Shown: positions 4,149 through 20,335 of the stretch, piece by piece
Layout of the letters: each line of letters starts with the position of its first letter
Position numbering within the stretch: position 1 is the first letter of the stretch
Source: Escherichia phage vB_Eco_mar004NP2
Length of the DNA: 64,000 nucleotides
Sequence record: NC_048205.1
Reading direction: 5' to 3' (one strand)
The notes under the pieces: model-generated
Told to the model about the DNA's origin: nothing
Database searches by the model: none
The model's input: only the letters and a program-made list of their open reading frames with translations
Made by a program: the position numbers and the translations under genes

Positions 4149-4429
4149 TGTTGATTGAAATTCTTATTGGGTTACTAGTTCTTACTACACTAGTAGCGAT
4201 TGGTGGAGTTATTGGGATTGTGAATGCACGAAAAAACATGGAAAGTATGCTTAGTACTAATGATGGACTACACCACCGTTTGCTAGAGCAAGAGCAAGAT
4301 ATTGAATTAGCACAAAGACGCTCGGATATTCTTAAGGAAAAACTAAATAGTATAGAAGCAATAGTTGGGAATAATAAATTACCGGCTAAAGTAATGCGTA
4401 CACAGATAATCACGGAGATTAAAAAATGA
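4148..4429 (+). CDS. small membrane protein with coiled-coil tail (93 aa)
   Basis: N-terminal TM helix LIEILIGLLVLTTLVAIGGVIGIV then charged helix. Confidence 0.55.
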   Translation: MLIEILIGLLVLTTLVAIGGVIGIVNARKNMESMLSTNDGLHHRLLEQEQDIELAQRRSDILKEKLNSIEAIVGNNKLPAKVMRTQIITEIKK

Positions 4430-4671
4430 TGATGTTTATTCTAGCATTTTATCTAATCGTGGTGGGAGTTCTAGTTACTAAGTACCATACATGGGCACCA
4501 AAGAATGTAGTTAAGGTAGCACTATTTGTTATTCCAGTCCCACTTATTATACTTTCTATGTTACTGGTGATGTTAATTGGTAAAGTGACGAAGACCGATA
4601 TTAAACGCATTGCTGATGAATTGCAACAGTCTTGTGATATGGTAGAGGATATTCTTAAAGATGAAGCTTAA
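4426..4671 (+). CDS. small two-TM membrane protein (81 aa)
   Basis: two hydrophobic segments; ATGA overlap with upstream gene. Confidence 0.55.
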   Translation: MMMFILAFYLIVVGVLVTKYHTWAPKNVVKVALFVIPVPLIILSMLLVMLIGKVTKTDIKRIADELQQSCDMVEDILKDEA

Positions 4672-4987
4672 TTTTAATGAATTAAATACCTTACATGAGA
4701 TACTACAGTTTGTGAATAATAATATTAGCATTCCAGATGACACGCTAGAAGTTCTCATGTTAATCGAGAAAAAGGTAGGAATTGAAATTGAGGATTCTTG
4801 GAAACCACTTTCTGTATTAACACCACTTAATATGAAAGTGATAGTTAAAAATATTGATACTGGTGAAGAGTGTGAAATGATTCGTAAAGAACTAGCTGAT
4901 AGCTATTCACCAAAGTCTGTAGTAATGTACCATGATGATACCGCTAAGACTCTACAGACAGCTAATTATGTATGGCGTCTCCCATGA
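4661..4987 (+). CDS. hypothetical protein (108 aa)
   Basis: ORF. Confidence 0.5.
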   Translation: MKLNFNELNTLHEILQFVNNNISIPDDTLEVLMLIEKKVGIEIEDSWKPLSVLTPLNMKVIVKNIDTGEECEMIRKELADSYSPKSVVMYHDDTAKTLQTANYVWRLP

Positions 4988-5130
4988 TTGATTTAGTACC
5001 AATTACTGCGGGGCTAATAGCACTATTAGTGCTCGCAGTTTTCATTATTGTGGAGCAGGCCAAAGTAATAAGGAGACTTAAAAACAATGGTAAAACGTCT
5101 TGTTTATCAGGCACCAAAGATTGTAACTGA
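4984..5130 (+). CDS. possible small membrane protein (48 aa), not in ORF track
   Basis: ATGA overlap with upstream stop; hydrophobic core; overlaps next ORF start in another frame, so uncertain. Confidence 0.25.
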   Translation: MIDLVPITAGLIALLVLAVFIIVEQAKVIRRLKNNGKTSCLSGTKDCN

Positions 5131-5287
5131 GTATTTTGTATTACTGCCTCAGATTGTATTTCTAACAGCATTATTTAATATACTTTTTCGACATCTAGGA
5201 ATAACGGAAAATATCTTCTACACTTCTGGGCTACTTCCTTTTATGTACGAAGGCATCATCGTGGCAATTAACGGAGTTCGTAAATGA
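5087..5287 (+). CDS. small membrane protein (66 aa)
   Basis: strong RBS AAGGAGA; hydrophobic segment. Confidence 0.5.
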   Translation: MVKRLVYQAPKIVTEYFVLLPQIVFLTALFNILFRHLGITENIFYTSGLLPFMYEGIIVAINGVRK

Positions 5288-5745
5288 CAGCACTACAACA
5301 ACTACAGAATTACTGGTTTGATAACCAATTTAACGATCTCTTCATCCAGTTGTTTGTCGAAACGAACGGACGCTTCAACTACCGATTCTTTAATAAGTTT
5401 CACGAAACAAAATTCTCGCATACAGAAATTAATGCAGCAATCCAAGACCTAACTGGTTCTAAAGTAATTCAGTATCGTGAAGTAGACTTCACACCAGATT
5501 GTTTTGGGTTTGAATTGTTTAAGAAAGCGTATAAATTTGGTAAGTTTGAGGATGCTCGTCAATGGGTTCATGATTTCTGGTACAACACCGATATTGTCCC
5601 TAGTCGCGTGCTGATTCTTAACTGGATTGCTAAGCAACATCCACCTAAAACGCAATCATCCTTCTTACCGACTGACACAGGAAACCTCTACCATGACAGA
5701 AAAGAAAAACCCATTATTGGAGCAGATGAAGGAGTGGGAGAGTAA
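5284..5745 (+). CDS. hypothetical protein (153 aa)
   Basis: ORF, ATGA overlap with upstream gene. Confidence 0.55.
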   Translation: MTALQQLQNYWFDNQFNDLFIQLFVETNGRFNYRFFNKFHETKFSHTEINAAIQDLTGSKVIQYREVDFTPDCFGFELFKKAYKFGKFEDARQWVHDFWYNTDIVPSRVLILNWIAKQHPPKTQSSFLPTDTGNLYHDRKEKPIIGADEGVGE

Positions 5746-6064
5746 TATTGAAACTGGTCTAATAGACGGTGAAGATATTGTCAACTCCATGCTAGAAGTA
5801 ACAGTAGATAATATTAATCCTATTTTGGCTGGAGAAACCTCAGATCTTATAGGACTCTCTAGCACATTTGATTCTTTGGCTAAATTAGCTTTAGACGATG
5901 AAGATATAACCAAAGAAGATCTCGCTACAGCTATGAATATGGCTATTAATGCTTACATCGGTAAACGTACTGATGAACTTGGTAAACAGATCAATAAGCG
6001 TGATGCTACGCTAGGTCTTATGGAAACGGCCACTATGTTAAGAAGTGGTAAACAACTTCATTAA
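5693..6064 (+). CDS. hypothetical protein (start trimmed to MTEKK)
   Basis: ORF track start 5627 overlaps upstream gene by >100 nt; internal ATG with AGGA upstream chosen. Confidence 0.45.
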   Translation: MTEKKNPLLEQMKEWESNIETGLIDGEDIVNSMLEVTVDNINPILAGETSDLIGLSSTFDSLAKLALDDEDITKEDLATAMNMAINAYIGKRTDELGKQINKRDATLGLMETATMLRSGKQLH

Positions 6065-6071
6065 TTTTAGG

Positions 6072-6104
6072 AGGCCAGGACTTAGTTGTTCTGGCCTTTT
6101 ATGT
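6072..6104 (+). terminator. rho-independent terminator
   Basis: hairpin GGCCAGGAC..TCTGGCC followed by TTTTATGTTTT. Confidence 0.55.
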
Positions 6105-6120
6105 TTTCAAGGAACTTCAA

Positions 6121-6324
6121 ATGCAAGTATATGTCCTTACTAGAGATATAAATGAGTATAATCAGGATGGTGAGTATTTTGTAAAAGTATTCGCTGAAAA
6201 GCCAAGTAAACAACAATTATTAGATGCGGGGGTACCCGAAGACCAGGCTAAGTGTATACTACAAGATAAAGAGTTTACCGGGGATGCTTACGAATGTTTC
6301 TACCTTAACTGTGAGACTATTTAA
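6121..6324 (+). CDS. hypothetical protein (67 aa)
   Basis: ORF after terminator. Confidence 0.45.
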   Translation: MQVYVLTRDINEYNQDGEYFVKVFAEKPSKQQLLDAGVPEDQAKCILQDKEFTGDAYECFYLNCETI

Positions 6325-6325
6325 T

Positions 6326-6772
6326 ATGAGAGAGAAAGTAAATGAATTATTAATCGAGGAAGCTAACAACTTTCCAATAAATAGGTTCATCAAATCGGAT
6401 GGATCTATTAATAGAACTAAAATTAAGCAGCTACATCCCGACTTCCAACAAGAAGCACTAAACCTTATATTTATCAAGAAAGCTGTTGCAGCTCATGGAG
6501 CTTTCTTCGGGTATGAGCGTGTAAATTATAAGACAATGCAACAGCAAGTTGAGATCTATTGTCCAGATCACGATGGTTATTACTGGCAAACTGCTAGATC
6601 TCATTTAGAAGGTCATGGATGTCGACTGTGCGCACACAAGGTTGTGCAGCGTGTCACGGATTATGGAACTTATACCGTACCAGCATGTTACCATAAATTT
6701 GTAATTGACGATAATCATATAGTTTGGTATAATAAGTTTTCAAAGCTAAGAATGGAGATAAGTAGTGAGTAG
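6326..6772 (+). CDS. zinc-ribbon protein with homing-endonuclease-type CxxH..GxGCxxC motif
   Basis: YERVNYKTMQQQVEIYCPDHDGYYWQTARSHLEGHGCRLCAHK; same motif class as ORFs at 24721-25394; start trimmed to ATG 6326. Confidence 0.45.
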   Translation: MREKVNELLIEEANNFPINRFIKSDGSINRTKIKQLHPDFQQEALNLIFIKKAVAAHGAFFGYERVNYKTMQQQVEIYCPDHDGYYWQTARSHLEGHGCRLCAHKVVQRVTDYGTYTVPACYHKFVIDDNHIVWYNKFSKLRMEISSE

Positions 6773-7055
6773 CTATATTGTATGGTCAAACCCACTAGCA
6801 GCACTTAGTAACAAACTATTTAAAACAACGTGGGGGTATAATGAAATAGACTTAGGTAGTCGCCCAATACCAAACAAACACCCCTTAGTTCCAGAGCTGT
6901 ATAAGGTAGTGATAAATGGCACGGAGTATTTGGTTGATAAATTTGACAGAAAACGTTTACTAGAGGGTATCTACGATAATTCTACATCGATAAATGAATT
7001 AGTAGAACATGCCCAAATATACGATAAGAGCTGGATGTTAATATGGAGATCATAG
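6765..7055 (+). CDS. hypothetical protein (96 aa)
   Basis: ORF. Confidence 0.5.
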   Translation: MSSYIVWSNPLAALSNKLFKTTWGYNEIDLGSRPIPNKHPLVPELYKVVINGTEYLVDKFDRKRLLEGIYDNSTSINELVEHAQIYDKSWMLIWRS

Positions 7056-7276
7056 TAATTATTTTAGCAGTTATGTTATTTATTGTAACATTTGTATCGT
7101 TTGCTATTATGCGCAGAGCTATAGAACTAGCGGAAGATATAACAAAATTACGCGGTGAGTTGGCTGCTCTTAAACTACAACGTGAAGCCCTCAAGCTATT
7201 TGTAGCTCAAGGTAGCGTAGAGCATACAGCAGAAGACTTCATCATATATCTCAAACGTTACATGGGAGTTAAATAA
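7043..7276 (+). CDS. small membrane protein with coiled coil (77 aa)
   Basis: N-terminal TM helix plus heptad-like helix. Confidence 0.5.
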   Translation: MEIIVIILAVMLFIVTFVSFAIMRRAIELAEDITKLRGELAALKLQREALKLFVAQGSVEHTAEDFIIYLKRYMGVK

Positions 7277-7461
7277 TGGAAACTCTTTTTCTTTTAATGC
7301 TCGTAGGTTCCTTGCTAGTTATATTAGCACTTCTACTGATCTGCAATATTCTTAATAATAAGAATCTAGAGCTAAAGTGTGAGAACCAAATCCTTAACCG
7401 TGAACTTAAACAATATAATCTAGCAGCCCATAAACTGTTAGACAAACTGGAGAATAAATAA
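7276..7461 (+). CDS. small membrane protein with coiled coil (61 aa)
   Basis: TM helix LFLLMLVGSLLVILALLLI plus helical tail; coupled start. Confidence 0.5.
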   Translation: METLFLLMLVGSLLVILALLLICNILNNKNLELKCENQILNRELKQYNLAAHKLLDKLENK

Positions 7462-8063
7462 TGTTTACACAACAACCTATTCAAGTAGTACCAGACCATG
7501 AACTGAACACATGGGATTATAGCCTTAAAGATTTAACTGCTACTGTACAATTCAAATCTATGAAGCTAACATTTGCACACACTGACCTTAGAGCCTGTAA
7601 AGATCTTGAAGGTAAGCTCGAAGATGCTCGTAGGATTTTTGGCACGGCTCGCATCCCGGCTGATAACCTGATTAATGCACTAATCGATGCGGGATACAAA
7701 CTCGTGAAGACTGAGGTGAACCGCCCCAATACTCCAGTGACTATTAGAGACCCGTGGCAGTCAGGGCCAAATACAATGTGGAACAGCCCTAAAATAACGT
7801 CGGATTTGCACAATGTTCCTTGTGGGGGTGTGGTAAGTAGTACGAAGTCATATAAGTTTGGTGAAGATTATGGGCCTTCTGTACAGTTAAAGCATACCCA
7901 AGAAGCTCTTGAATCTGACATGAAAAGCGTAGCGCCTGCGGATACTGAAGGTTTTAGAAGTCCCATCTATGTTACTCACTTTAATAATCTTAGACCTGGG
8001 AGTATAAATGATACTATCCTTGAGGCGTTGGGAGCTGCTCTTAATGAGAGTAAAAAGGATTAA
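7461..8063 (+). CDS. hypothetical protein (200 aa)
   Basis: ORF, ATGA-type coupling. Confidence 0.55.
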   Translation: MFTQQPIQVVPDHELNTWDYSLKDLTATVQFKSMKLTFAHTDLRACKDLEGKLEDARRIFGTARIPADNLINALIDAGYKLVKTEVNRPNTPVTIRDPWQSGPNTMWNSPKITSDLHNVPCGGVVSSTKSYKFGEDYGPSVQLKHTQEALESDMKSVAPADTEGFRSPIYVTHFNNLRPGSINDTILEALGAALNESKKD

Positions 8064-8143
8064 TAATTTCCTAATACATGAGCCTCTACGGAGGCTCTAA
8101 AATAAAAAGAAGGTCATCCAGACCTTAAAAACGGGAGATAATA

Positions 8144-9028
8144 ATGTATAACTTTAAAGATAAACTAAGACAAAATGCTGGTAAAACAAAACCTAAAGAG
8201 AATAATAATGTTCCTAATGCCAAAGTATTACCATTTCCAGAACTGTCTCAAGAAGAAAAAGATAAGTTAGCATTTATGTTTGATGCTCTTCTAGGGCTAA
8301 GTGGACGTTTATATTCCTCACTCAATATTAATGAGAAACGTCTAGTAGAGATGTTCTGTAAACGTTACCAAGTTACTTCAAAGGGCAATTCTTATAAAGA
8401 AGGTGAAAAAGCATTTACAGTCTTAAAGATTAGCGCATATGCACATCGTTTCTTAGTTTATGGATTGCAAATGGAATACTTCACCATCCCATCATTTAGC
8501 TCTTTCCATATCTTTGAAGATGAACGAATGAATATTGATGATCTCTATGGGGATACGTACAAATACTCAGGAAGTCCATTCCACGATGCATTAAGGAGCT
8601 ACCCTACTAGTTACTTACCAGTTAGGGCATCTCAAGGTAAAGCTAGCGTTTTTGCTGTTTACTCAGGATCTAAAGCATCGGATCTAGAAACTTATATATT
8701 TAAAGAGCGTAAATCTGTACTTCCAGATGAAGCATTGTATAGCAATCCATTGCTTCCAGAAAAAGAACCAGAGAAAATTGATGTAACCCCACCAATCCCA
8801 TCTGATTCTCAATATTTAATTTATGAGAAACAAGTTAAGTTATCCCTAGAAATTGGGTTAGTTACACCGCTTGCTGCAGCGTTCATAAATAGATACCTAG
8901 AAATCCCAGATGAGTTCCACCAACGTTATAATACGAATATTCAGATAACGGATGAATTAATTGCGTTAGCAAAAGATACACCTACTGACACTGAGGCGTA
9001 TCAAAAAGCATACCAAGAGTTATTATAA
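8144..9028 (+). CDS. hypothetical protein (294 aa)
   Basis: ORF with RBS GGGAGA. Confidence 0.6.
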   Translation: MYNFKDKLRQNAGKTKPKENNNVPNAKVLPFPELSQEEKDKLAFMFDALLGLSGRLYSSLNINEKRLVEMFCKRYQVTSKGNSYKEGEKAFTVLKISAYAHRFLVYGLQMEYFTIPSFSSFHIFEDERMNIDDLYGDTYKYSGSPFHDALRSYPTSYLPVRASQGKASVFAVYSGSKASDLETYIFKERKSVLPDEALYSNPLLPEKEPEKIDVTPPIPSDSQYLIYEKQVKLSLEIGLVTPLAAAFINRYLEIPDEFHQRYNTNIQITDELIALAKDTPTDTEAYQKAYQELL

Positions 9029-9561
9029 TATTCTGCATGTCTCGGTGCACAATACCTGTACCGAGACTCAAATACAAACTCTCGTTGACAGATAGCTAAA
9101 TGTATGTTATCATAACTCTATGAGTTAATAGAATTAACCATTTAGAGTTGCCACACAGAAGGTGTGGTGGTTCAGTAATTTAAAATTACTAACTTGTAGC
9201 GGAGGATACGGAGCGACAGGACAAGTTAATAAGTAATTTAATATAAATTGCTAGAAACATCACGAGACCTTCTGGCGGGGGCAAAGCTCTATATGAGAAC
9301 CCTGGGGGATCTTATATTTAAAATAAAAGTAAAACTTTTGACCATATAATTTACATTCAAGATGATACACCTGTTGCCGCTCATCTGCTAGGATGGCACA
9401 ACACTTTCTTCTAGACTCCTAAGTTTCTAGGAAAACTCTTACACTCTAGGGCAGTTTCTCTCCAACGTTACATATCCTAGGCCGGTTTAATACAGGGCGG
9501 TTATTGGGAGGGCGGTTATTTCTAGAAGACATTTTTCCAAAACACATTTCCAGAAATTACT

Positions 9562-10163
9562 GTCGGATTCGCACATTGTGTTTCTAGAAATTTATGGTCG
9601 GATTTGCACAATTGCCTAAGTTTTCATGGACACATAATCTCCTGAAAATGGCAGCATTATTTCGGGCCGAAGGCCCATGATTGCCTGAGTTTTTAGAGCC
9701 ACAAGAATTTTCACTTGTCAAGCTATTTTGCCACCTTTAGCAAATAAAATTTTACTTTATCTCCACTAATCTCAAATTAACCCAAATCTTCTCAACTCTT
9801 CCCCCAAAAACGCAGCAAATCAGGCGTTGCACGCCACCCATGCTGCTCCTCCAGTTTCTCCACTTATTTTCTCTCGCTCTCTCATCTTCTCCTCAAACCT
9901 ATACAATCACACACCCTCCAATCGAAGTCACAAAAATCTTGTCGGATTCGCACATCTTAATCCTAGAAAAACCGTGTCGGATTTGCACATATCCCACAGG
10001 ATTCGAACGCAGTTCGAGATTGCTGGAGTTTTTGGGAAAATTCATTGTCGGATTTGCACACTATAAAAATTTTTGGGGTCGGATTTGCACACTACCAAAA
10101 ATTGTCGGATTCGCACATACACGCCCGCGCGTAATCCATGGTGGCAAATGTCGGATTTGCACA
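9562..10163 (+). repeat. array of 8 direct 14-bp iterons GTCGGATT(C/T)GCACA
   Basis: copies at 9562, 9597, 9941, 9976, 10047, 10078, 10104, 10150, all same orientation, irregular spacing. Confidence 0.85.
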
Positions 10164-10189
10164 AAAGCGCAGGGCAATTGCCCTGCGCT
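10164..10189 (-). terminator. perfect GC-rich palindrome; likely terminator for the minus-strand cassette
   Basis: AGCGCAGGGCAATTGCCCTGCGCT, 11-bp stem; on minus strand followed by TTTTGTG. Confidence 0.45.
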
Positions 10190-10190
10190 A

Positions 10191-10400
10191 AATACGAATG
10201 ATAATGAGAATCATTCGTATTTAAAAAGCGGAATAAGAATGATAATAGTTCTCATTTAGAAAGTGAAATGAGAATCAATCTCATTTAAGAAAGGGAATGA
10301 GAACTATTCAAAAAATGAAATGATTCTCATTTAAAAAATGGAATGATTATCGGTTAGATAGTGAAATGCGAATGATAATGATTCTCATTTAAGAATGGAA
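10191..10400. repeat. cluster of short palindromes AATGAGA-N-TCTCATT (hairpin/operator-like)
   Basis: at least 5 palindromic units read directly; extra copies at 10727-10747 and 19721-19738. Confidence 0.75.
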
Positions 10401-10420
10401 GCGAGAAACACTATTATTTA

Positions 10421-10530
10421 AGTTACCCACAGACTTATTAACAGCACGATTTGATTTGACAGAATCCTAGCCATTTTGAGGCGTTATCAACAGACTTATC
10501 CACAGCTTATCCTACTGTATAAATATACAG
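10421..10530. repeat. left arm of ~110-bp inverted repeat with DnaA-box-like sites and 16-bp palindrome
   Basis: reverse complement of 14001-14110 aligns with identical blocks AGTTAYCCACA..TTATTAACAGCAC and ACTTATCCACAG..TTATCCTACTGTATAAATATACAG. Confidence 0.8.
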
Positions 10531-10788
10531 TATTCCTACGCAGTGAATAATTCTAATATAGCGTTAAAACGTCCTAAATCGCATTCTAACGCGCTTAATT
10601 TTGATGGGGATACTAAAACAAGGGCAAAATTGGAGGAGGCTTAAAAATTAGTTAGCTTGCTAACGATCACACAAGGCGACACGTAACACCCTAATCATTA
10701 GCAGGCTAACCATCACGGGCGCGGTTAAATGAGAATCACTCTCATTTGAGAATTGGGGGCACTCCCTGGTAGTTGCGCCCCGTTATTA

Positions 10789-10983
10789 TTAGTCTGGTAG
10801 TCGATGCGTGATCTTTTCCTCCTCCCCGTAGGAATCCACCAAATGCTGATAATAACCATCGTGATCATAAATCACTTTATCATACTCGCCACGCTCGACC
10901 GCTTGTCGGTTTTCCGGCGTATCGGGCACGTAAAAAACATCAACCATTGTACTGATTTTGGTTACAACAATTTTATTGCTCAT
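10789..10983 (-). CDS. hypothetical protein (start trimmed to MSNKIVV)
   Basis: ORF; RBS AGGGG before internal ATG. Confidence 0.45.
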   Translation of the reverse strand: MSNKIVVTKISTMVDVFYVPDTPENRQAVERGEYDKVIYDHDGYYQHLVDSYGEEEKITHRLPD

Positions 10984-11085
10984 AATAACCCCTAGTAAAT
11001 ATATTTTTGCCAATAGTGGCGAACGTTATCGCCACCAGCGGAATCATTTGCAGCCTCAACATTACCCGCGAAAATATATATAATC

Positions 11086-11430
11086 TCATTGCGCCACCTT
11101 TCGAAACGCTGTTTCAATACTATCCGCAGTGGATTGAATATACGCGCCTTTCATTATCAGGCGCTCGGTGCATATCTTGCGAAAAATATTAATAAAATCA
11201 TCTTCATTTTCTGCAATTAACGCCTCACCCATGACCTGAACGTCGCAAGATGCAAAGGTCAAAAATTGAAACGCTAGTTCACGGGCAACGACCGCATTGA
11301 TTTTATAATGCGCCTTGCCTTCATAAATATTAATAACGCCCTTATAAGCTGGGGAAAGCTGATTTAAGTAGTTTGCTAGTAATGCCGGACGGCAATTAGC
11401 AACAAAACGATTGCCTTCATAAATTACCAT
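11086..11430 (-). CDS. hypothetical protein (start trimmed to MVIYEG)
   Basis: ORF; RBS GGGGAG before ATG 11430; abuts upstream gene. Confidence 0.5.
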   Translation of the reverse strand: MVIYEGNRFVANCRPALLANYLNQLSPAYKGVINIYEGKAHYKINAVVARELAFQFLTFASCDVQVMGEALIAENEDDFINIFRKICTERLIMKGAYIQSTADSIETAFRKVAQ

Positions 11431-11431
11431 T

Positions 11432-11644
11432 TTATAGCACTCCCCGAAACGCAGCGTAAAAGGTGGCAAAATGTTTAACTGTTTCAGCTATCACGTTGCC
11501 CCGTTTATCGAATTTTTTCTCGGTAACACGGAAGGCGTTTTTATTTCGCGCTACATATTCAATTTTACAATCTTCCCGCTCGAACGTGTTAACGTCCACC
11601 AGCTTAAAGCCTTTTGAACGTGCAAGGGAAACGTTACGAATCAT
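11432..11644 (-). CDS. hypothetical protein (70 aa)
   Basis: ORF. Confidence 0.5.
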   Translation of the reverse strand: MIRNVSLARSKGFKLVDVNTFEREDCKIEYVARNKNAFRVTEKKFDKRGNVIAETVKHFATFYAAFRGVL

Positions 11645-11646
11645 TT

Positions 11647-11796
11647 TTATTCTCCTTTACTAGTCATGCAGCCCAGCAGATAAGAAAATACAGCGATACC
11701 CGCACCAATAATAACCGCGTGAACGCCGAAAGCTATTGCAAAAAGTGATAAAATAGCGCCCAAGATACCTGCTAGAATAGCTCGAAAAATAACCAT
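11647..11796 (-). CDS. small membrane protein (49 aa), not in ORF track
   Basis: perfect RBS AGGAGG 6 nt before ATG; hydrophobic throughout. Confidence 0.45.
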   Translation of the reverse strand: MVIFRAILAGILGAILSLFAIAFGVHAVIIGAGIAVFSYLLGCMTSKGE

Positions 11797-11845
11797 TTGT
11801 GATAGCCTCCTAGTTATCGGGGGATATTATATCCCCCGTTATTAA

Positions 11846-12109
11846 TTACATTAAAACAATTTTTGCAGCTTGTTTTTTGGTGCAATGTTCCGCCTTCAGG
11901 GTATCCAGCAAAAAGCCAGCCGTTTGCTGATCGATTTTATCGGCGTTATATAGTTCCTGAATGGTATTATAGGTTTTAGCAATACCGAACTCCTGCACCA
12001 TTTCATAGATGACAGCACGATTAGATACCCAGCCTTGCGCGGTAAACAGATGACTAGCAGAAGAATAAGCAACCATTTTAAGCCTCCAAATTTTTGGGAA
12101 AATTTTCAA
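11846..12109 (-). CDS. hypothetical protein (87 aa)
   Basis: ORF. Confidence 0.5.
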   Translation of the reverse strand: MKIFPKIWRLKMVAYSSASHLFTAQGWVSNRAVIYEMVQEFGIAKTYNTIQELYNADKIDQQTAGFLLDTLKAEHCTKKQAAKIVLM

Positions 12110-12182
12110 CCGTCCTTAAACGGTGTAAAGGCATTATAACAAAAAAGGCCACCAATTATGGCGACCTTTACAAAACTTTACA

Positions 12183-12677
12183 TTAAACTACTTGTAATGT
12201 TTCAATATTGAAACATCGTTTCAATTCGTCATGCAAAACAGCGTATTCATCCCATCGGGTACTATCAGGGATATAAACAAGCTGTTTTAGTCGGTTTGCG
12301 TATATTACCGCTTTATTTCCGATTATTTCAGCGCCACCATATTTAATAATTAATTTCATGACGGAATTAATAGGATCGCCGCCGTTTACATATGTGCCGG
12401 ATTTACTTAATTGATAATGATAAAGGCTTGCATATACATTATCATTCTCATACCATTCGCCCGTTTCCTCATCTTCATAGCCATCGCTACCAAAACGAGA
12501 AGCATTATCAACAGCCATTTCATGAGCGAAAGCGTCGAGATCCGTACCAGCAGGAACAAAATATTCCTCAGTATTCCCTTCACCGCAATAGCCAGTATGA
12601 CAATCGACCAAAATGATCATATCATGTTTAGCCTTGCTCACTTCCCCTAGCGAAAACCCATATTTTTCCTCAGCCAT
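12183..12677 (-). CDS. hypothetical acidic protein (164 aa)
   Basis: ORF with RBS AGGAGG; Asp/Glu-rich. Confidence 0.6.
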   Translation of the reverse strand: MAEEKYGFSLGEVSKAKHDMIILVDCHTGYCGEGNTEEYFVPAGTDLDAFAHEMAVDNASRFGSDGYEDEETGEWYENDNVYASLYHYQLSKSGTYVNGGDPINSVMKLIIKYGGAEIIGNKAVIYANRLKQLVYIPDSTRWDEYAVLHDELKRCFNIETLQVV

Positions 12678-12742
12678 TTATTAGCCTCCTATTAATTAAT
12701 AAGGGAATAGTAAAGCGGGGAAACAATCCCCGCTAAATATTA

Positions 12743-13735
12743 TTACTCGCTTTCGGTGCTAGTGGTAAAAGTAGAAATATCGATACCTTTCACCATTTCA
12801 TCAATCATTTCAGCGATGTTAAAACTTTGCACCATTTCTAGCATTGCCGCTTCCATAGCTGCGCCTGCTACCGCTTTCGCTTTCTGGTTATTCGGGGCGT
12901 ACTGGTCAACCGCTACGCTCAGCAGGTTAGCAATAACTACCCGACCAATCGGCGTATCAATATAACCTTTAATCATAAACGGCGCTTTTTTAGCCGCTAC
13001 TTTCGTGATTTGAGTCAATGCAATTTTGCCAGCTTCCAGTTTTGCAGCATTTACAACAGCGGATTTATTAGCGGCAACGATATTAGCGATCTTGGTCATG
13101 GTATTATTTCCTTTGTTTTCAGTAGTTTGAGTGTTAACGCTTTGAGTGTTAGAATTTACAGCATGTTTTTCCGTGTTGTCAATAGGCTGATCTTCCTCCT
13201 TCCAGAAAGAAAAGCCCGCGCTTTCAATATCCCCATCATATACATAAGGGTACACTTCCGACGGTAACAAAAAATTACCGTTATCATCAAAGGCCATTAC
13301 AGCCGCGAAACGATACCCGTCACAATCCGACCGATTCCAGCCAACTGATAAATAACGCCAAAATGAATCAAGAAAATTTTCAATATCATAAAGATCATTG
13401 GGGTTGGCTTCATAATTTTCTATTGAAAAAACTTCTAAGCCTGCCCCAGTATCATAGGCTTTTACTGTGCTACCTTTTACGATTATGAAATCAGTATCCG
13501 GCCCTCGACTAGTGAGCAATTGATAATCTTGATTATATAAAACAAGCGTTGCCCCTTGTTTATATAACGGTAGAAAACTATTCATATCATAGGCATCGAA
13601 ATCACCAAAAAAGTTTTGGTGAATAGTTTCAGCCTTGTTAATAAAATGTTTAATGCTGGTTGTTCTGCTACCGTCCAGCAGGTTACGCAGCGCACCTTTT
13701 AAGACGGTTGCGTTATCTGGTTTATATAGCCTCAT
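12743..13735 (-). CDS. hypothetical protein (330 aa)
   Basis: ORF with RBS GAGGGAGG; first gene of minus-strand cassette. Confidence 0.6.
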   Translation of the reverse strand: MRLYKPDNATVLKGALRNLLDGSRTTSIKHFINKAETIHQNFFGDFDAYDMNSFLPLYKQGATLVLYNQDYQLLTSRGPDTDFIIVKGSTVKAYDTGAGLEVFSIENYEANPNDLYDIENFLDSFWRYLSVGWNRSDCDGYRFAAVMAFDDNGNFLLPSEVYPYVYDGDIESAGFSFWKEEDQPIDNTEKHAVNSNTQSVNTQTTENKGNNTMTKIANIVAANKSAVVNAAKLEAGKIALTQITKVAAKKAPFMIKGYIDTPIGRVVIANLLSVAVDQYAPNNQKAKAVAGAAMEAAMLEMVQSFNIAEMIDEMVKGIDISTFTTSTESE

Positions 13736-14000
13736 TTGTTGGCCTCCCTCGTTAATCGGTGAGTGAATGATAAAGGCAATTTTCTAGCATAGGCAAATAT
13801 TATTTTACCTTTTTATTTTCCTTGCCTAGCGCCTAGTTTTATGCTAACCGCGCAGCGGTACAGTAAAGAGCAAAACACGGTGAAGCCACCAGGGCGACGG
13901 GTGAAGGCTTCACTTTAATATTACCCCACCGCATTTAGCTCGTTAGAAAGCGTTTTAGGCCGCCTAAAATTGATTGCAGTTGTTAACACTACCTTTTTAC

Positions 14001-14110
14001 CCTGTATATTTATACAGTAGGATAACATGTGGATAAGTCTGTGGATAAGTCCTTATATCGTCGCCTATCGTGTCAAATCATTTTGTGCTGTTAATAAACT
14101 TGTGGATAAC
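14001..14110. repeat. right arm of ~110-bp inverted repeat with DnaA boxes
   Basis: TGTGGATAA at 14027-14035, 14039-14047, 14100-14108; palindrome CTGTATATTTATACAG 14001-14016. Confidence 0.8.
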
Positions 14111-14392
14111 TTAAATGATAGTGGTTCTCACTTAGGACGATAGTTTCTTATAGTTATTATTTCTATCGGTTACGATTTCTTATAATTATTATTTCTCATT
14201 AATTTATAAGTATATTATATATCATGAAATAGTTAGTTGGCTAATGAGATTTTCCGTGATTAATAGTCTGCTAACAGTTCCGGCTGTTACAATCCACCAG
14301 CATGATTATCATCCTAGCAACTATTAGTCTGCTATCTTTCCGATGCATACTAACAAATAAAAGTCAATTAATTTATTTCATAAAATAAGTAG

Positions 14393-14425
14393 TTATCCAC
14401 TGGAAAATAAAAGTCAAGTGGATAA
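14393..14425. promoter_or_regulatory. inverted pair of DnaA boxes
   Basis: AGTTATCCAC..N17..GTGGATAACT, perfect 10-bp inverted repeat matching DnaA-box consensus TTATCCACA. Confidence 0.6.
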
Positions 14426-14826
14426 CTAGGAAAATTTCATTTTTGCTTTTGGGGATAAGTTATCAACAAGGCTAGAATGCGCCTAAAACGCCCTATAACG
14501 CGATGAAGTTTTTAGCCATGCCATTGCATTGCCTACCCTCGTTTATCGCTACCACGAGCTTTTTAGTTTTTGTCAAGTAGGGCAAGGCAAATATAAATGA
14601 AAAAATTACTTGCCAACCTGCTGGGTTTTATGGTATTCGCGCGCCCGTTTCCTTTAATTTTAGTGCGCCGCGCCCAGGTCGCCGCACGGTGTCCGGTGGC
14701 ATTTTGTCTTTACGTTTCTTTACAAAAATAAGGTTGCGCCATTTTTACTATTTGCTATTATTTATCTCGTAGGGCGGCAATGACGAACTACACGGCGGGA
14801 AGTTTACCGCCGCGCTCTTTAAAAAT

Positions 14827-15116
14827 TGGGTACATCTTAAAGTCTATCGGCGGTAAACTTATATTATAAGGAATCGCAGATATGAAACAAACTTTATTGA
14901 TCACTGGTAAACCAGCTAAAAAATTAGATGGTACTACTAAAAAATTGTTGACAATAGCCCAGCAATCCGTAAAATACCGATTTGCTCAGTACAAGAAAGG
15001 CCGCCAGCAGGGTTTAGAAATGATCTGGCGTAATATTATGATCGACCTGAAAGAAAATCATAAAAAACTGCAAAAAACAGTTTGACACCCTAGCCGATAG
15101 GCTTTAAGATGTACCC
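14827..15116. repeat. 24-bp inverted repeat pair flanking the 67-aa gene
   Basis: GGGTACATCTTAAAGTCTATCGGC (14827-14850) versus GCCGATAGGCTTTAAGATGTACCC (15093-15116), 1 mismatch. Confidence 0.7.
14882..15085 (+). CDS. small basic protein (67 aa)
   Basis: ORF with RBS AAGGAA; Lys-rich. Confidence 0.5.
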   Translation: MKQTLLITGKPAKKLDGTTKKLLTIAQQSVKYRFAQYKKGRQQGLEMIWRNIMIDLKENHKKLQKTV

Positions 15117-15315
15117 AGTTCGATGAGAGCGATAACTTGATACAATTTGACGGTTAGGTGATTCCCCATAAATCATCCTGCCCCCTAACTGGGATATAGC
15201 AGCCTGCGTGGAGTTCCTTAAATTGATTATAGCGGTGAGCGGATTGTTGCTTATTACCTGCTACTTTCTAGCAGGTAATGCGGAACAATCCCCTAAATAA
15301 CTTGGAGTTTATACT

Positions 15316-15567
15316 ATGCAAAACGTTATTACCGCGCCTAAAATTGGTCAATCCGTTTTTATTCCTTTCGTTACTAAAACGGATGAACTAACCGGAAAAG
15401 CCGAACGTATTAAAGGTGCGGCGCTTATGCCGTTTGATACAATCGACGCGGTATACGCTGAAAATGAACGTAGTAACAACGGCAAAACCGTTTTTAGCGT
15501 TCGCGTTAAATCCGGCGACGTTGTAAAGGTTGTACAGCGTAACGAAAAATGGGAAGCTGTAGCGTAA
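15316..15567 (+). CDS. hypothetical pre-early protein (83 aa)
   Basis: ORF with conserved upstream box ..CCCCTAAAT..GGAGTTT.. Confidence 0.55.
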   Translation: MQNVITAPKIGQSVFIPFVTKTDELTGKAERIKGAALMPFDTIDAVYAENERSNNGKTVFSVRVKSGDVVKVVQRNEKWEAVA

Positions 15568-15663
15568 TAGTGTTACTTTTATATCCCCCAGTAGTTCGGG
15601 GGATATAACGATTAACATTATGTTAATCTTATCCCTTAAATTAAACTAATAGGAGTTTTTACC

Positions 15664-16071
15664 ATGACTAACGTTAAAACCGCAAAATTTGCTTGGAATG
15701 AAGAAAACACTCAAAAAGCTGTTTCTATGTACCAGCAGTTAATTAATGAAAACGGTTTAGATTTCGCAAATAGCGACGGTTTAAAAGAGATTGCAAAAGC
15801 AGTGGGCGCGTCTTCTCCCGTGTCTGTTCGCTCAAAATTGACCAGCGCAAAAGCGTATCAGAAAAGCGATAAGCCTCGCAAAGTTGGCGGCGGTAGCTCA
15901 ATCCGCAAAGCTCACTATGTACGCGTTATCGCTAAACATGCTATTGATTCCGGCATTATTAAAGACGCCGACGATCTGGCAAGTCTGGAAAGTGCAAAAC
16001 TTGAAACGCTGGACGCCGTAGCGCAACTGTTAGGCGTTGCCGATGAAGTAAAACAGGCCGCAGGTGAATAA
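15664..16071 (+). CDS. hypothetical pre-early protein (135 aa)
   Basis: ORF with conserved upstream box. Confidence 0.6.
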   Translation: MTNVKTAKFAWNEENTQKAVSMYQQLINENGLDFANSDGLKEIAKAVGASSPVSVRSKLTSAKAYQKSDKPRKVGGGSSIRKAHYVRVIAKHAIDSGIIKDADDLASLESAKLETLDAVAQLLGVADEVKQAAGE

Positions 16072-16127
16072 ATTTAATTAGTGGGGAATATTCCCCACTA
16101 TAATTTCCCTTTGACTGGAGTTTTAAA

Positions 16128-16325
16128 ATGATCTTTTACCCCACTGAATCGTTAATTTTAGGCTTATTTATTATGGCGGCCTCGTTATTATTCGCTTATT
16201 TTCAAAATGATTTAGACTCATATTATTTTAAACGTAAGTCTAAATTGGCAAAGCGTTTAGGTCTGATTTGTTTTATTGCCGCCATTGCTTGTGGTGTTAG
16301 TTCTAGCCTTATGCCTTTAAATTAA
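16128..16325 (+). CDS. small membrane protein (65 aa)
   Basis: two hydrophobic segments; conserved upstream box. Confidence 0.5.
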   Translation: MIFYPTESLILGLFIMAASLLFAYFQNDLDSYYFKRKSKLAKRLGLICFIAAIACGVSSSLMPLN

Positions 16326-16422
16326 TGTTGCAAATTATAACGCCTATTATTCAAGGCGTTATATTTGGCAATATTTGCCAATAACAAACGTTTTTTAATC
16401 CCTTTAATGGAGTTTTATTAAT

Positions 16423-18087
16423 ATGATTATTTCCGCAGAAAAACAAACCGTTATCCTGAAAATGGCCGCTGACTTTAATTTCTATGGTAAACGTCTGCGC
16501 GCTACTAAACTGGAGGTCTGCGACGATATATCAAAAGCGGTCTACGATACAACAAAACACTCGACCGCTATCTGCGACTGGTTGGAAGCAAATAAACCAG
16601 CTAAACCGAAAGCGGCGAAAGTAGCAAAAGCCATTAAAAACGATGAGCGTCCAGAAGCGGCGGGGATTGTTTCTAGCACGGTTGAGCAATGGGAAGTAAA
16701 GCAGGGTAAACGCTTTATTATTACGTCGATTCAGAATAATACTTTCCCGCATAAAAACTTTTTAGCCTCATTGGAGCAATTTGCTAAATATATCGGCGCT
16801 GATTTGCTGGTTAGCAAGTTTATTTATAACAAAAACGGTTTTCAAAATGGCGAGGGTGCAGAAGGAATAAAATATGATTCCGCATTTGACAAATATATCT
16901 GCAATAAAAACGTGTTTTTAAATAACCGCCGTTTTGCTTTCATGGCTGAAATTAACGTTTTGCCAACCGCAGATTATCCGCTTTCTGGATTCGCTGAAAC
17001 TGCAACGGCGCTTAATCTGGAAGGTCTGGCAATTGGTCACGCTAAAATTACCGCTGAAAGCGTGCCAGCTTTAAAAGGTGAAGTAGTGCGCCGTATGTAC
17101 TCAACCGGAACGGCAACGCTCAAAAACTACATTCAGCAGAAAGCAGGACAAAAGGCCGAGGCGCTGCATAACTTCGGTGCGCTAATTGTCGAGTTCGACG
17201 AGGACGGGGAATTTTTTGTACGCCAGCTCGAAACGATGGACGAAAGCGGGGTATTTTATGATCTGAATGTGTGCGCTACTCCTGCCGGATGCTATGAGAC
17301 ATCGGGGCATGTTTTAGGCTTGCAATACGGCGATATTCACGCAGAAAAACTAGATGATGATTGTGCCGTTGCGTCATGGGCTGGCGAAAATAGCTTGCTT
17401 GATATTCTCAAGCCTAAATATCAGTTTATCCATGACGTGCATGATTTTACATCACGCAACCATCACAACCGCGCATCCGGTGTATTCCTAGCAAAACAAT
17501 ACGCCGCCGGACGTGATAAGGTATTAGATGATCTTATCGATACGGGGCGCGTGCTGGAATCAATGGAACGTGATTTCTCGCAAACAATCATTGTTGAATC
17601 TAATCACGATTTGGCGCTATCCCGTTGGCTTGATGATCGTAATGCTAACATTAAAGACGATCCAGCAAACGCGGAACTATATCACCGCCTAAATGCCGCG
17701 ATTTATGGAGCTATTGCAGAAAAAGACGATACTTTCAACGTGCTAGATTATGCGCTGCGCAAGGTTGCAGGTTGTGAGTTTAACGCCATTTTTCTAACTA
17801 CTGACCAATCTTTCAAGATTGCAGGCATTGAATGCGGCGTACACGGTCACAACGGCATTAACGGCAGCCGTGGCAATCCTAAACAATTTAAGAAATTGGG
17901 CAAATTAAACACCGGACACACTCACACCGCCAGCATTTATGGCGGCGTGTATACCGCTGGCGTAGCTGGTAGTCTGGACATGGGTTACAACGTTGGCGCG
18001 TCAAGCTGGACGCAAACGCATTTAATTACCTATGCAAACGGTCAGCGCACTTTGATTGACTTTAAAAACGGTAAATTCTTTGCGTAA
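16423..18087 (+). CDS. A1: A1-like pre-early protein (554 aa)
   Basis: size and position next to dmp-like gene as in T5 pre-early region; GDIH and GHNG motifs compatible with phosphoesterase-like fold (recalled, not searched). Confidence 0.6.
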   Translation: MIISAEKQTVILKMAADFNFYGKRLRATKLEVCDDISKAVYDTTKHSTAICDWLEANKPAKPKAAKVAKAIKNDERPEAAGIVSSTVEQWEVKQGKRFIITSIQNNTFPHKNFLASLEQFAKYIGADLLVSKFIYNKNGFQNGEGAEGIKYDSAFDKYICNKNVFLNNRRFAFMAEINVLPTADYPLSGFAETATALNLEGLAIGHAKITAESVPALKGEVVRRMYSTGTATLKNYIQQKAGQKAEALHNFGALIVEFDEDGEFFVRQLETMDESGVFYDLNVCATPAGCYETSGHVLGLQYGDIHAEKLDDDCAVASWAGENSLLDILKPKYQFIHDVHDFTSRNHHNRASGVFLAKQYAAGRDKVLDDLIDTGRVLESMERDFSQTIIVESNHDLALSRWLDDRNANIKDDPANAELYHRLNAAIYGAIAEKDDTFNVLDYALRKVAGCEFNAIFLTTDQSFKIAGIECGVHGHNGINGSRGNPKQFKKLGKLNTGHTHTASIYGGVYTAGVAGSLDMGYNVGASSWTQTHLITYANGQRTLIDFKNGKFFA

Positions 18088-18143
18088 ATAATTAATCCCC
18101 TAGCGGCTTGAAATATAGCCGCTATTACAGGAGCTAAATTAGA

Positions 18144-18401
18144 ATGAAAGTTACATTACCCAAAACGCTAGACGAAAAAGCATTTATTTCACCGGATGAA
18201 ATGGAATCCGATAAAGTTTACAGCTTCGGGCCTATTCTAGCCGCCAAAACTAATACTGATGGGATTATTACGGTCGATTATCGTGATAATGATATTGTAC
18301 CCTTTGACGATGATGGTGCTTTTTATGAGTGGCTAAGCGATAATAATTTACCCGTAAACGGTGAATTAACGCCGTACCAGATGCAGATTATTATCAAATA
18401 A
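18144..18401 (+). CDS. hypothetical pre-early protein (85 aa)
   Basis: ORF. Confidence 0.5.
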   Translation: MKVTLPKTLDEKAFISPDEMESDKVYSFGPILAAKTNTDGIITVDYRDNDIVPFDDDGAFYEWLSDNNLPVNGELTPYQMQIIIK

Positions 18402-18439
18402 ATTAAATCCATTATTAAACTAATTGGAGTTTTATAAAC

Positions 18440-18832
18440 ATGAAAAAGCAAAATATTCCATTTGACCGCGCTCAATCCTCAATTGTTCTGGTTTATTCTA
18501 ATGGTGAGCGTTACCACGTCGAGGCGGGGCACGTTATTGATGAATTGCTAGATTTCAATGACGCTTTGCAGGTTACAACATTTGCATATATGCAAGGCAA
18601 ACTAACTAGCCATATTAAAGCAAAAGGCGTTTATGTTGACACGGTGAAACAAGAAACGATTATCATCGACGCAGTAAAATCCGGTCTAACCTTTGCAGTT
18701 GTCGCGCCTTGCCCCGCTTGCCTTGATGATCAATTGATTTCTGCAAAAGTATATACTTGTGCGGGGATTCGTTCCCATGTATCAGGTGAGGATGTTAGTT
18801 TTATCGCCGATGCGTTGGCTTATGGTCTTTAA
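18440..18832 (+). CDS. hypothetical pre-early protein (130 aa), possibly A2-like by size
   Basis: ORF between A1-like and dmp-like genes; assignment positional only. Confidence 0.5.
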   Translation: MKKQNIPFDRAQSSIVLVYSNGERYHVEAGHVIDELLDFNDALQVTTFAYMQGKLTSHIKAKGVYVDTVKQETIIIDAVKSGLTFAVVAPCPACLDDQLISAKVYTCAGIRSHVSGEDVSFIADALAYGL

Positions 18833-18911
18833 TAGTTAATTTATTATTACCCGCTTATAAATAGCGGGTAATGCTGAATTAATCTAATCCCTTAAATGGA
18901 GAACGTAACAA

Positions 18912-19646
18912 ATGAATAAAGCTATCATGAATCTTTCCCGCAGCTTCCCGCATATTTCCCGCGTCATGATTTGGGATTTAGACGGCACTATCATTAATTC
19001 TTTCCATCGTGTAGCACCCTGCTTTGATAGCGAGGGCAATTTAGATTTAAATAAGTATAAAAATGAAGCGTGTAAACACCATTTAATAATGCAAGATACT
19101 TTATTGCCATTGGTTGAATATATGCGCCAGTGCATGAATGACGCAAATACTTTAAACATTATTTGCACCGCTCGACTGATGAGTAAGTCGGACTATTATT
19201 TCTTGCGTAAACAAGGGTTGCGCGGTCGTGGTAATAGTAATATCCGCGTATTTTCCCGCGATACACTACACAAATATTTTAAAGCTGATAAGGTTAGCGA
19301 AATATACCACAGCAAAGACGCAGTATATAAATCTTATTATTTTGAATTATTTAAACAGTTATATCCTAACGCTGATTTTACAATGATTGATGATCATAAA
19401 GGCGTGCTATCAGCGGCAGCGTCATACGGATTTAAAACGCTGGACGCACAAGCCGTTAATGATATTCTATCAATCGGCGTGGCATTGATAGGTGAAACCT
19501 TTATTGATGAATCTCTCGACGATGATAATGATTATCAATTCCTAGCTGACCGTTTAAAATTATGCTGGGAAGGTATGACCGAGGAAGAACGCGCAGAATA
19601 TAGTTGCAGTCCTCAACAATATATTGAGAAATTAAAAGTTGCCTAA
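18912..19646 (+). CDS. dmp: HAD-family 5'-deoxyribonucleotidase (dmp-like)
   Basis: N-terminal HAD motif I MIWDLDGTI; 244 aa. Confidence 0.7.
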   Translation: MNKAIMNLSRSFPHISRVMIWDLDGTIINSFHRVAPCFDSEGNLDLNKYKNEACKHHLIMQDTLLPLVEYMRQCMNDANTLNIICTARLMSKSDYYFLRKQGLRGRGNSNIRVFSRDTLHKYFKADKVSEIYHSKDAVYKSYYFELFKQLYPNADFTMIDDHKGVLSAAASYGFKTLDAQAVNDILSIGVALIGETFIDESLDDDNDYQFLADRLKLCWEGMTEEERAEYSCSPQQYIEKLKVA

Positions 19647-19798
19647 CAATTAAAGTTGAAATAGTCACGGTGTGTAATGATACCATGCCGTGACTATTAG
19701 CCTGCTAAGTACCGGGCGGTAATGAGACTCATTCTCATCTGGGGGGCCACTGGACACACCCACGCGTACGTAATCCAAAGAAATTGGCAAAAGTCAAA

Positions 19799-20044
19799 TT
19801 AGCGCATAGAAGGGTCATCAAACCTGTATTCTGGTCTGAACTCACGGAATCTCTTCCGCGACGCCCGAGATCCATCCGACCACTCCCGCTCAAACTCCGC
19901 ACGTTTCTCGTCAAACTTCCGCTCCCTTTCCGCAATCTCCCGCGTCACTCCCGCAATATATTTACGATGCTTATTGATTGCCGCAGTCGTCCCGAAAACT
20001 CCCGTGAGTATCCCGATAATAAAAGCAATTACAATACTAAACAT
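19799..20044 (-). CDS. small membrane protein with charged helical tail (81 aa)
   Basis: TM helix FSIVIAFIIGILTGVFGTTAA; 8-nt overlap with upstream ORF. Confidence 0.5.
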   Translation of the reverse strand: MFSIVIAFIIGILTGVFGTTAAINKHRKYIAGVTREIAERERKFDEKRAEFEREWSDGSRASRKRFREFRPEYRFDDPSMR

Positions 20045-20231
20045 CTAATTCCCTCTCAATTTGCAGAATACGGGTACTATCACAGCGTTGAAGCTCTACT
20101 AATTTTTCTAGTGCAAATTGTTGCTGCTTTACCTGGGCCTCTAGAGTTTTTAGGCGAACATACGCGGTATAAGAAACAATGAAAATTGCCCAGATTAATA
20201 TTACTATTAATGTAGCTGCCACTTCCATCAT
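20037..20231 (-). CDS. small membrane protein with coiled coil (64 aa)
   Basis: TM helix plus heptad-like tail; ATGA overlap with upstream ORF. Confidence 0.5.
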   Translation of the reverse strand: MMEVAATLIVILIWAIFIVSYTAYVRLKTLEAQVKQQQFALEKLVELQRCDSTRILQIERELDV

Positions 20232-20335
20232 TTACGTTTCTCCAGCAATAAAGTTTCAATTCTAGCTAAGTGATTATCTAAAATACATTGCCCAATAATC
20301 ACAATCCCTAATAGTGCAATAATTACCCATTCCAT
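20228..20335 (-). CDS. tiny membrane protein (35 aa), not in ORF track
   Basis: translated by hand; TAATG overlap with upstream ORF, ATGA with downstream. Confidence 0.35.
   Translation of the reverse strand: MEWVIIALLGIVIIGQCILDNHLARIETLLLEKRK

Follow-up and report, generated by a model that had tools for sequence, protein, structure and literature searches.

The seven minus-strand genes that an open reading frame (ORF) listing gives at positions 10789-13735 of Escherichia phage vB_Eco_mar004NP2 (record NC_048205.1; the window, throughout, is the whole stretch of 64,000 nucleotides that was analysed) very likely make up the rightward pre-early, that is first-step-transfer, host-takeover operon of a Tequintavirus, of the T5.011-T5.017 type. 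This identity follows from the match with phage T5 in synteny, in protein identity, in the flanking genes and in the promoter. The homologous T5 block lies at 6495-9157 of NC_005859, on the plus strand within the left terminal repeat, which constitutes the first-step-transfer DNA, and six of the seven products, named here after their lengths in residues, have orthologs in it that are encoded in the same order (Table 1). The plus-strand flanks of the cassette comprise hdi, 007, A2, 005, A1, 002 and dmp, all 90-98.5% identical to the T5 genes, such that the first-pass annotation, made from the letters of the sequence alone, was right to place the cassette in the pre-early, first-transferred DNA of a T5-type phage. 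In position, the operon stands between the divergently transcribed A1/A2/dmp operon and a region of injection-stop-type repeats, with the pre-early promoter at its head. Over 161 aligned columns, the sequence 5' of p330 has ~98% identity to the T5 promoter region, and the promoter upstream of 011 is given as experimentally characterised (Annor et al. 2026, bioRxiv 10.64898/2026.04.02.716235). The homologous region is annotated within the terminal repeat in T5, Stitch and My1, the window holding one copy. Region 10500-14000 matched 439 phage records, with 99% identity to the Salmonella phages PMBT29 and SPLA5b (genus Tequintavirus), and overall the locus is an ordinary, largely known one.

Genes and signals of the cassette

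All seven ORFs are real genes under purifying selection, because the ratios of non-synonymous to synonymous substitution rates (dN/dS) are 0.00-0.31 at dS 0.25-2.2, as measured against the orthologs in T5, Stitch and SuperGirl, and because every product has an end-to-end match to a PHROG family. The genes are present, moreover, in hundreds of phage genomes. Starts were taken to be an ATG preceded by a Shine-Dalgarno site, which inspection of the strand found before each of the seven, and three of the listed starts were corrected thereby. In this regard, the number, strand and overall span of the genes as first annotated are borne out, as are the product sizes of 330, 164 and 49 residues, the listed sizes of 87, 127 and 74 residues now being 76, 114 and 64. 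The initial remark that no product carries a recognisable motif stands for all of them except the largest, since scans of all products against Pfam, NCBIfam and PADLOC returned no domain other than DUF7566 on the 330-residue protein; a phmmer search with six of the proteins against all PDB sequences gave no match, and neither did the p330 family profile.

A further minus-strand frame of 38 codons, which overlaps the p114 stop codon (ATGA), is probably the N-terminal remnant left after deletion of most of T5.016, and no functional gene. Its residues 4-33 are 93% identical to T5 8648-8737, in frame with the T5.016 start, and the exact 38-residue protein is absent from a collection of 15 billion proteins. 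T5.016 itself is found in <15% of Demerecviridae (Annor et al. 2026, bioRxiv 10.64898/2026.04.02.716235). The stub is carried as a coding sequence (CDS) at 1708-1803 of OR896837.1, in which mar004NP2 is re-annotated.

Table 1. Features of the cassette and its surroundings in the window, with orthologs and amino acid identities to T5 from local tblastn.
Feature	Position	Strand	Description	T5 ortholog (identity)
p330	12743-13735	-	330 residues; ATG with Shine-Dalgarno site	T5.011 (78.6%)
p164	12183-12677	-	164 residues; ATG with Shine-Dalgarno site	
p76	11846-12076	-	76 residues, corrected from 87	T5.012 (82.9%)
p49	11647-11796	-	49 residues; AGGAGG ribosome-binding site	T5.013 (68.3%)
p70	11432-11644	-	70 residues; ATG with Shine-Dalgarno site	T5.014 (100%)
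p114	11086-11430	-	114 residues, corrected from 127	T5.015 (93.0%, full length)
p64	10789-10983	-	64 residues, corrected from 74	T5.017 (89.1%)
38-residue ORF	10973-11089	-	probable stub of the T5.016 start (tblastn against T5)	
Pre-early sigma-70 promoter region	13741..13819	-	aligns with the promoter annotated at T5 6411-6489	
GC-rich hairpin, p330/p164 gap	12714..12734	-	8-bp stem with 6 GC pairs (terminator-like scan); predicted weak terminator or attenuator	
Rho-independent terminator 3' of p164	12144..12169	-	predicted; 11-bp stem followed by a T-run	
GC-rich hairpin, p76/p49 gap	11818..11838	-	palindromic 9-bp stem, CGGGGGATA(TAA)TATCCCCCG	
Repeat- and palindrome-rich non-coding region	9550..10760	.	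downstream of the operon; positional match to the T5 injection-stop signal	

Hairpins lie 3' of p330, p164 and p76. The first of these is absent from T5, having been lost along with p164, and the terminator 3' of p164 is kept there at 7534-7559, matching the position of an annotated T5 terminator. Downstream of the operon, the non-coding region holds ~10 copies of TGTCGGATT(T/C)GCACA, seven copies of a palindromic unit, AAATGAGAATC..TCTCATTT, and boxes of the TTATCCACA type; in the T5 annotation, T5.017 is immediately followed by the injection-stop signal. Direct and inverted repeats form dense families both here and at about 14020-14090, with ~10 copies of TGTCGGATTYGCACA, and the TTATCCACA motifs, which resemble DnaA boxes, are found downstream of the operon as well as in the divergent promoter region. 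A match to the RNA family SprD (Rfam) reached 29 bits against a cut-off of 100 and, being sub-threshold, was dismissed as chance.

Published functions of the T5 genes and the nickase label

Of the T5 pre-early genes, 13 were expressed by Mahata et al. (2021, PMC8201957), with T5.008, T5.011 and T5.015 proving toxic; T5.015 binds the host uracil-DNA glycosylase (Ung) and cuts at the abasic sites left by this enzyme, upon which replication and cell division are arrested (PMC8201957). All 17 were subsequently expressed by Annor et al. (2026, bioRxiv 10.64898/2026.04.02.716235), in whose hands 011 was toxic, disorganised the nucleoid and 'resists functional predictions', 013 lysed the cells, and 015 gave cell elongation with guillotined nucleoids. 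A T5 phage without hegG-017 was nevertheless viable in the same work, the block being dispensable. In the Tequintavirus Bas33, 10 pre-early proteins were detected when infection was blocked after the first transfer step. The description of the cassette as uncharacterised, therefore, no longer applies to three of its seven genes, the orthologs T5.011 and T5.013 being toxic and T5.015 a nickase, and it remains apt insofar as most products are without assigned biochemistry.

On sequence comparison, p114 is the ortholog of the Ung-dependent abasic-site nickase T5.015 (Mahata et al. 2021, PMC8201957), which it matches at 93% identity along its full length of 114 residues and whose operon position it shares, the activity itself being known for the T5 protein. 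Which T5 gene carries this activity is, however, a matter on which the databases disagree. RefSeq NC_005859, PHROG 4227 and pharokka-style annotations put the abasic-site nicking endonuclease label on the 70-residue T5.014 (8086-8298), whereas in UniRef the 70-residue protein is 'ORF015' and it is the 114-residue protein, which is T5.015 (8300-8644 in the T5 record), that is called a DNA-(apurinic or apyrimidinic site) endonuclease. The record of phage DT57C gives the concordance of names: the 70-residue product with NC_005859 locus tag T5.014 is also T5p013 and ORF015, and the 114-residue product with locus tag T5.015 is also T5p014 and ORF016. Both experimental papers use the T5.0xx locus tags, with 015 toxic and 014 not (PMC8201957; bioRxiv 10.64898/2026.04.02.716235). 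Since the locus-tag list, the NC_005859.1 numbering of the preprint, the UniRef name and the DT57C cross-reference all point to T5.015, the nickase is very probably the 114-residue protein and the label in RefSeq and PHROGs off by one gene, a displacement that likely arose from T5.014 being named ORF015 in another T5 record. The probable mislabel has spread through RefSeq, PHROGs and pharokka-type annotations and should be corrected. Ung had been put forward at the outset as one of the possible targets of inhibition, and the T5 ortholog of p114 does indeed bind host Ung, but it exploits the enzyme rather than inhibiting it (PMC8201957).

The neighbouring p70 is basic, with an isoelectric point (pI) of 10.0, and is the most constrained gene of the operon (dN = 0 at dS 0.77 against T5.014). 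It is present in 435, and p114 in 437, of ~441 Markadamsvirinae records, and the two form a near-universally co-occurring pair in this subfamily. In DT57C (5800-6930, compared with 10982-13792 of the window), precise deletions, of p330 plus p164, of p76 and of p64, have left the promoter, the terminator of p164 and the trio p49-p70-p114 in place; this retention in spite of the deletions suggests that the operon has its conserved core in the trio.

The largest product, p330, is an acidic, full-length DUF7566 protein (Pfam PF24450, E = 3.6e-111, 372 bits against a cut-off of 27), covering positions 5-336 of the 336 in the profile and belonging to phrog_4263. It is laid out as a variable N-terminal domain (1-185), a disordered linker rich in Gln, Asn and Thr (186-212) and an Ala-rich, helical and nearly invariant C-terminal domain (213-325). 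By alignment, identity in the N-terminal domain is 64-69% within Tequintavirus and ~25% to Klebsiella phages, as against 99% and 62%, respectively, in the C-terminal domain; in other words, the two halves are conserved to very different degrees, and phages My1 and those of Serratia and Providencia share the C-terminal domain only. The predicted model is mediocre, with a predicted local distance difference test score (pLDDT) of 63 that falls below 50 in the linker, and a fold search with it matched generic helices only. In OR896837.1 the p330 ortholog (3457-4448) is split into two CDSs of 253 and 77 residues, probably by a sequencing frameshift or an annotation artefact; the RefSeq protein of mar004NP2 has 330 residues and is identical to p330 of the window. 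A promoter-like site lies inside the gene at 13182-13153 (TTGACA, 18 nt, TAAATT), followed shortly by an internal ATG, that of Met213, which has AAGGA ahead of it and opens the conserved C-terminal domain. An internal expression signal within p330 is conceivable, because synonymous recoding was needed before T5 gene 011 could be cloned (bioRxiv 10.64898/2026.04.02.716235); such matches are common by chance, the promoter-like scan having given 32 sites for ~20 expected, and Met213 is not conserved in Klebsiella phages.

The 49-residue product had been called a membrane peptide with a perfect ribosome-binding site, and both parts of this description are confirmed. It has a grand average of hydropathy of 1.74, a top 19-residue hydropathy of 2.54 and two hydrophobic segments at about residues 2-22 and 25-42, and AGGAGG lies 9 nt ahead of its ATG. 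Two hydrophobic segments within ~50-60 residues is the pattern of small membrane-disrupting peptides of the T5.013 type, T5.013 itself being annotated with two transmembrane domains, and p49 is by prediction a small two-segment membrane peptide of this type. The two other small products are p76 (phrog_5145; dN/dS 0.07-0.15), whose ortholog T5.012 is not among the toxic genes in the T5 screens (PMC8201957; bioRxiv 10.64898/2026.04.02.716235), and p64 (phrog_6973; dN/dS 0.12-0.17), which is acidic, with a pI of 4.8, and 51% identical to My1 8251-8421 (My1_016).

The p164 family and restriction insensitivity

The product without a T5 ortholog, p164 (phrog_6741), was first described as strongly acidic. 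Acidic it is, with a pI of 4.54, a net charge of -15 and 17% Asp plus Glu, although the strength of this acidity is only moderate. The charge is a property of the family: 34 of 34 diverse relatives are acidic (pI 4.05-4.8, net charge -10 to -33, again at moderate charge density), and acidic columns are conserved at positions 37-77 despite divergence down to 23% identity. The best-conserved motifs are TGYCGE, YQLSxSG, NGGDP and RLKQLVYIP. Several relatives contain a CxxC...CxxC element, two CxxC motifs being present in 13 of the 34, at the place where p164 of the window has the loop DGYEDEETGEWYEND. The AlphaFold model, a mixed alpha/beta fold, is confident (pLDDT 86.5, predicted template modelling score 0.81), and a Foldseek search against viral models matched only uncharacterised proteins of T5-like phages. 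The protein belongs to no Pfam or NCBIfam family; phmmer and the family profile found nothing significant among PDB sequences and Pfam beyond zinc-ribbon matches to an insert, and a fold search found no similarity to solved structures, with no known DNA mimic among the matches listed. What is left of the DNA-mimic-like character first ascribed to p164 is, therefore, an acidity conserved across the family, with no likeness to a known mimic in sequence or fold in the PDB, Pfam and fold searches.

The family is tiny, amounting to 18 clusters at 90% identity and to 32 at 50% among 1.84 billion proteins. Phage records with the gene number 344, among them Tequintavirus, Epseptimavirus, Klebsiella T5-like phages, Pectobacterium My1 and Erwinia KEY, and about half of Markadamsvirinae have it. 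Its immediate upstream neighbour in Stitch, SuperGirl and My1 is the p330 homolog; a further gene intervenes in a Klebsiella phage. In the latter, vB_Kpn_K7_rec11 (3932-6377), the order is a p330 homolog, an unrelated 164-residue gene, the p164 homolog (175 residues) and a 115-residue protein whose C-terminus is weakly like p114 (46% over 26 residues, E = 3e-4). No copy was found in the T5 first-step-transfer region by tblastn, and the family, as that of My1_018, was given by Davison as being without a homolog in T5. Indeed, a clean deletion of ~560 bp in T5 begins just past the stop codon of 011, ends at that of p164 and leaves the p164 terminator in place. The gene was missed by T5-based screens because T5 has lost it; p164 is, in this sense, the one conserved pre-early gene that lies beyond their reach, and it is the best remaining candidate for an anti-defence function in the cassette.

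It may be, then, that p164 alone is an anti-defence protein, an accessory product that serves as an acidic decoy, binding and blocking a DNA-binding immune protein of some hosts. This would explain its patchy distribution, across about half of Markadamsvirinae and the T5-like phages of Klebsiella, Pectobacterium and Erwinia, with clean deletion in T5; the retention of negative charge, including the acidic columns, through such divergence, the self-contained placement of the gene between two hairpins of a pre-early operon and a confident model with no known fold neighbour all lean the same way. Against these stand the modest charge, a conserved core of Gly, Thr, Ala and aromatic motifs (TGYCGE and NGGDP among them) that is typical of a folded binding or catalytic site, and the zinc-ribbon-like insert of most relatives; the position beside p330 in Markadamsvirinae and My1, and one gene apart in the Klebsiella phage, could equally mean that the two proteins work jointly. 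An acidic-decoy role is possible, though without homology support, and the proposal as a whole is rather unlikely. A fuller version, in which p164 founds a new pre-early acidic family, so far confined to T5-like phages, that neutralises a host DNA-binding immune or repair protein, was overlooked since T5 deleted it, and had its ancestral zinc ribbon swapped for an acidic loop in the Tequintavirus/Epseptimavirus lineage, is a shade more speculative still. As for p164 being an antidote to a toxic p330, this was rejected, T5 keeping 011 without p164.

Less probable again, and indeed improbable, is a broader form of the proposal with which the analysis began, namely that the cassette, or several of its genes, forms a dedicated anti-defence island that inhibits restriction-modification, RecBCD, Ung or other nucleases and accounts for the restriction insensitivity of T5-type phages. 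Tequintaviruses withstand restriction of types I, II and III as long as the first-step-transfer DNA is free of sites, which implies a protective function expressed from this DNA; Epseptimaviruses are more sensitive (PMC10644984). The first-step-transfer stretch at 10701-20300 contains no EcoRI, EcoRV, HindIII, BamHI, PstI or EcoKI site for ~6 expected, the other 52.4 kb of the window having 35 sites of the same six enzymes, an absence that fits classical site avoidance. To these points in favour may be added that the genes are dispensable on laboratory strains yet under purifying selection, and that p330, p164 and p64 are acidic.

The distribution of the genes, however, is at odds with the phenotype. 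T5 is insensitive without p164. DT57C lacks p330, p164, p76, p64 and hdi, keeping only p49-p70-p114, and the tested Tequintaviruses, DT57C included, are described as highly resistant (PMC10644984; for DT57C the status is that of the text, not of the heat-map). Conversely, the more sensitive Epseptimaviruses carry all seven genes (SuperGirl, which is Bas29) or six of them (Stitch), at 56-94% identity. Judged by gene content, presence or absence of the cassette genes does not track restriction insensitivity, with allelic differences as a caveat, and because the T5 and DT57C deletions and the Epseptimavirus gene content mismatch the phenotype, the determinant more likely lies elsewhere than in this operon. 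In addition, the sole product of known mechanism damages host DNA by way of Ung and inhibits no defence, the products lack similarity to solved structures, and the operon genes include none of the T5 factors with known anti-defence or trigger roles (Ptr1/ORF094, Ptr2/ORF103, Rad and the tRNAs); the published accessory-gene screens did not extend to T5-like genes. Weakest of all, and scarcely credible, is the notion that some of the small ORFs are no genes but frames open by chance in AT-rich regulatory DNA, for which there speak the numerous overlapping spurious ORFs on both strands and the 38-codon frame that really is a remnant, but against which stand the Shine-Dalgarno sites, the full-length PHROG matches and the recurrence of the genes in hundreds of genomes, dN/dS and conservation refuting it for all seven.

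An anti-defence function is, in sum, to be expected somewhere in this DNA (PMC10644984), and the comparisons weaken the case for this cassette; the idea is an old published hypothesis and not a new lead, reasonable in itself, and weakened as regards restriction evasion. The first-step-transfer gene responsible for the insensitivity of T5-type phages to restriction, CRISPR and RecBCD has been sought since the 1970s, and the search is narrowed here, attention shifting to the leftward operon as a possible home of restriction insensitivity. What appear to be new are the restriction of the p164 family to T5-like phages, together with its deletion in T5, and the apparently misplaced nickase label.

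Proposed mode of action and comparison with known systems

The reading that best survives, therefore, is that of a Tequintavirus host-takeover operon. From T5 biology, the operon would belong to the ~8% of the genome that is transferred first, and host RNA polymerase would transcribe it from a strong sigma-70 promoter while entry of the remaining DNA is halted, the internal hairpins probably grading expression along its length. The products would be accessory host-takeover effectors, dispensable in laboratory hosts. As a T5.011-type protein, p330 would be toxic and disorganise the nucleoid; adaptation to the host would probably fall to its variable N-terminal domain, and contact with a conserved partner to the invariant, helical C-terminal one. 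The envelope would be damaged by p49, a small two-segment membrane peptide of T5.013 type, and p114, of T5.015 type, would bind the host glycosylase and nick the resulting abasic sites such that host replication is arrested, with the uracil-free phage DNA presumably spared. Co-occurrence makes p70 a possible partner of the nickase; beyond this, p70, p76 and p64 would be conserved small proteins to which no role is ascribed. Lastly, p164 would be an acidic accessory protein, its most likely target a basic, nucleic-acid-binding protein that it would bind and block.

Several points weigh against this scheme. The functions are those of T5 orthologs, carried over to the present proteins at 68-93% identity; the nickase assignment depends on the locus-tag numbering having been read correctly, and RefSeq and PHROGs disagree with it; sequence profiles and fold searches gave no lead to the biochemistry of p330, p164, p76, p70 or p64; and the roles proposed for p164, p70 and the p330 domains are inferred.

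Among known systems, p164 invites comparison with the DNA mimics T7 Ocr, ArdA and PBS1/2 Ugi, which it resembles in being small, acidic and, by prediction, pre-early, with a charge conserved in its family. It differs from them in having no sequence, profile or fold similarity to solved structures, in its mixed alpha/beta globular model with conserved motifs that contain Gly and Cys, and in the zinc-ribbon-like insert of most of its relatives. Ocr and ArdA are, moreover, far more acidic, and the charge density of p164 is below that of Ocr, ArdA and Ugi.

Further afield, the terminal repeat of Pectobacterium phage My1 (Mccorquodalevirinae) contains My1_019, with the p330 C-terminal domain at 53% identity, directly downstream of it My1_018, a p164 homolog, and also My1_016, a p64 homolog. 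In contrast to the present phage, My1 has no homologs of p76, p49, p70 and p114 and an operon of opposite orientation to that of T5, and My1_019 is unrelated to p330 in its N-terminal domain.

The closest system is T5 itself. The phage of the window differs from it in having p164 as an extra gene between 011 and 012, where T5 has its deletion, in the reduction of T5.016 to a stub, in that hegG does not stand upstream, and in a p49 that is ~11 residues shorter than T5.013. The two share the gene order and the placement of the operon, which in both has the divergent pre-early promoters on one side and the injection-stop region on the other; six of the proteins are 68-100% identical, and the promoter DNA is ~98% identical.

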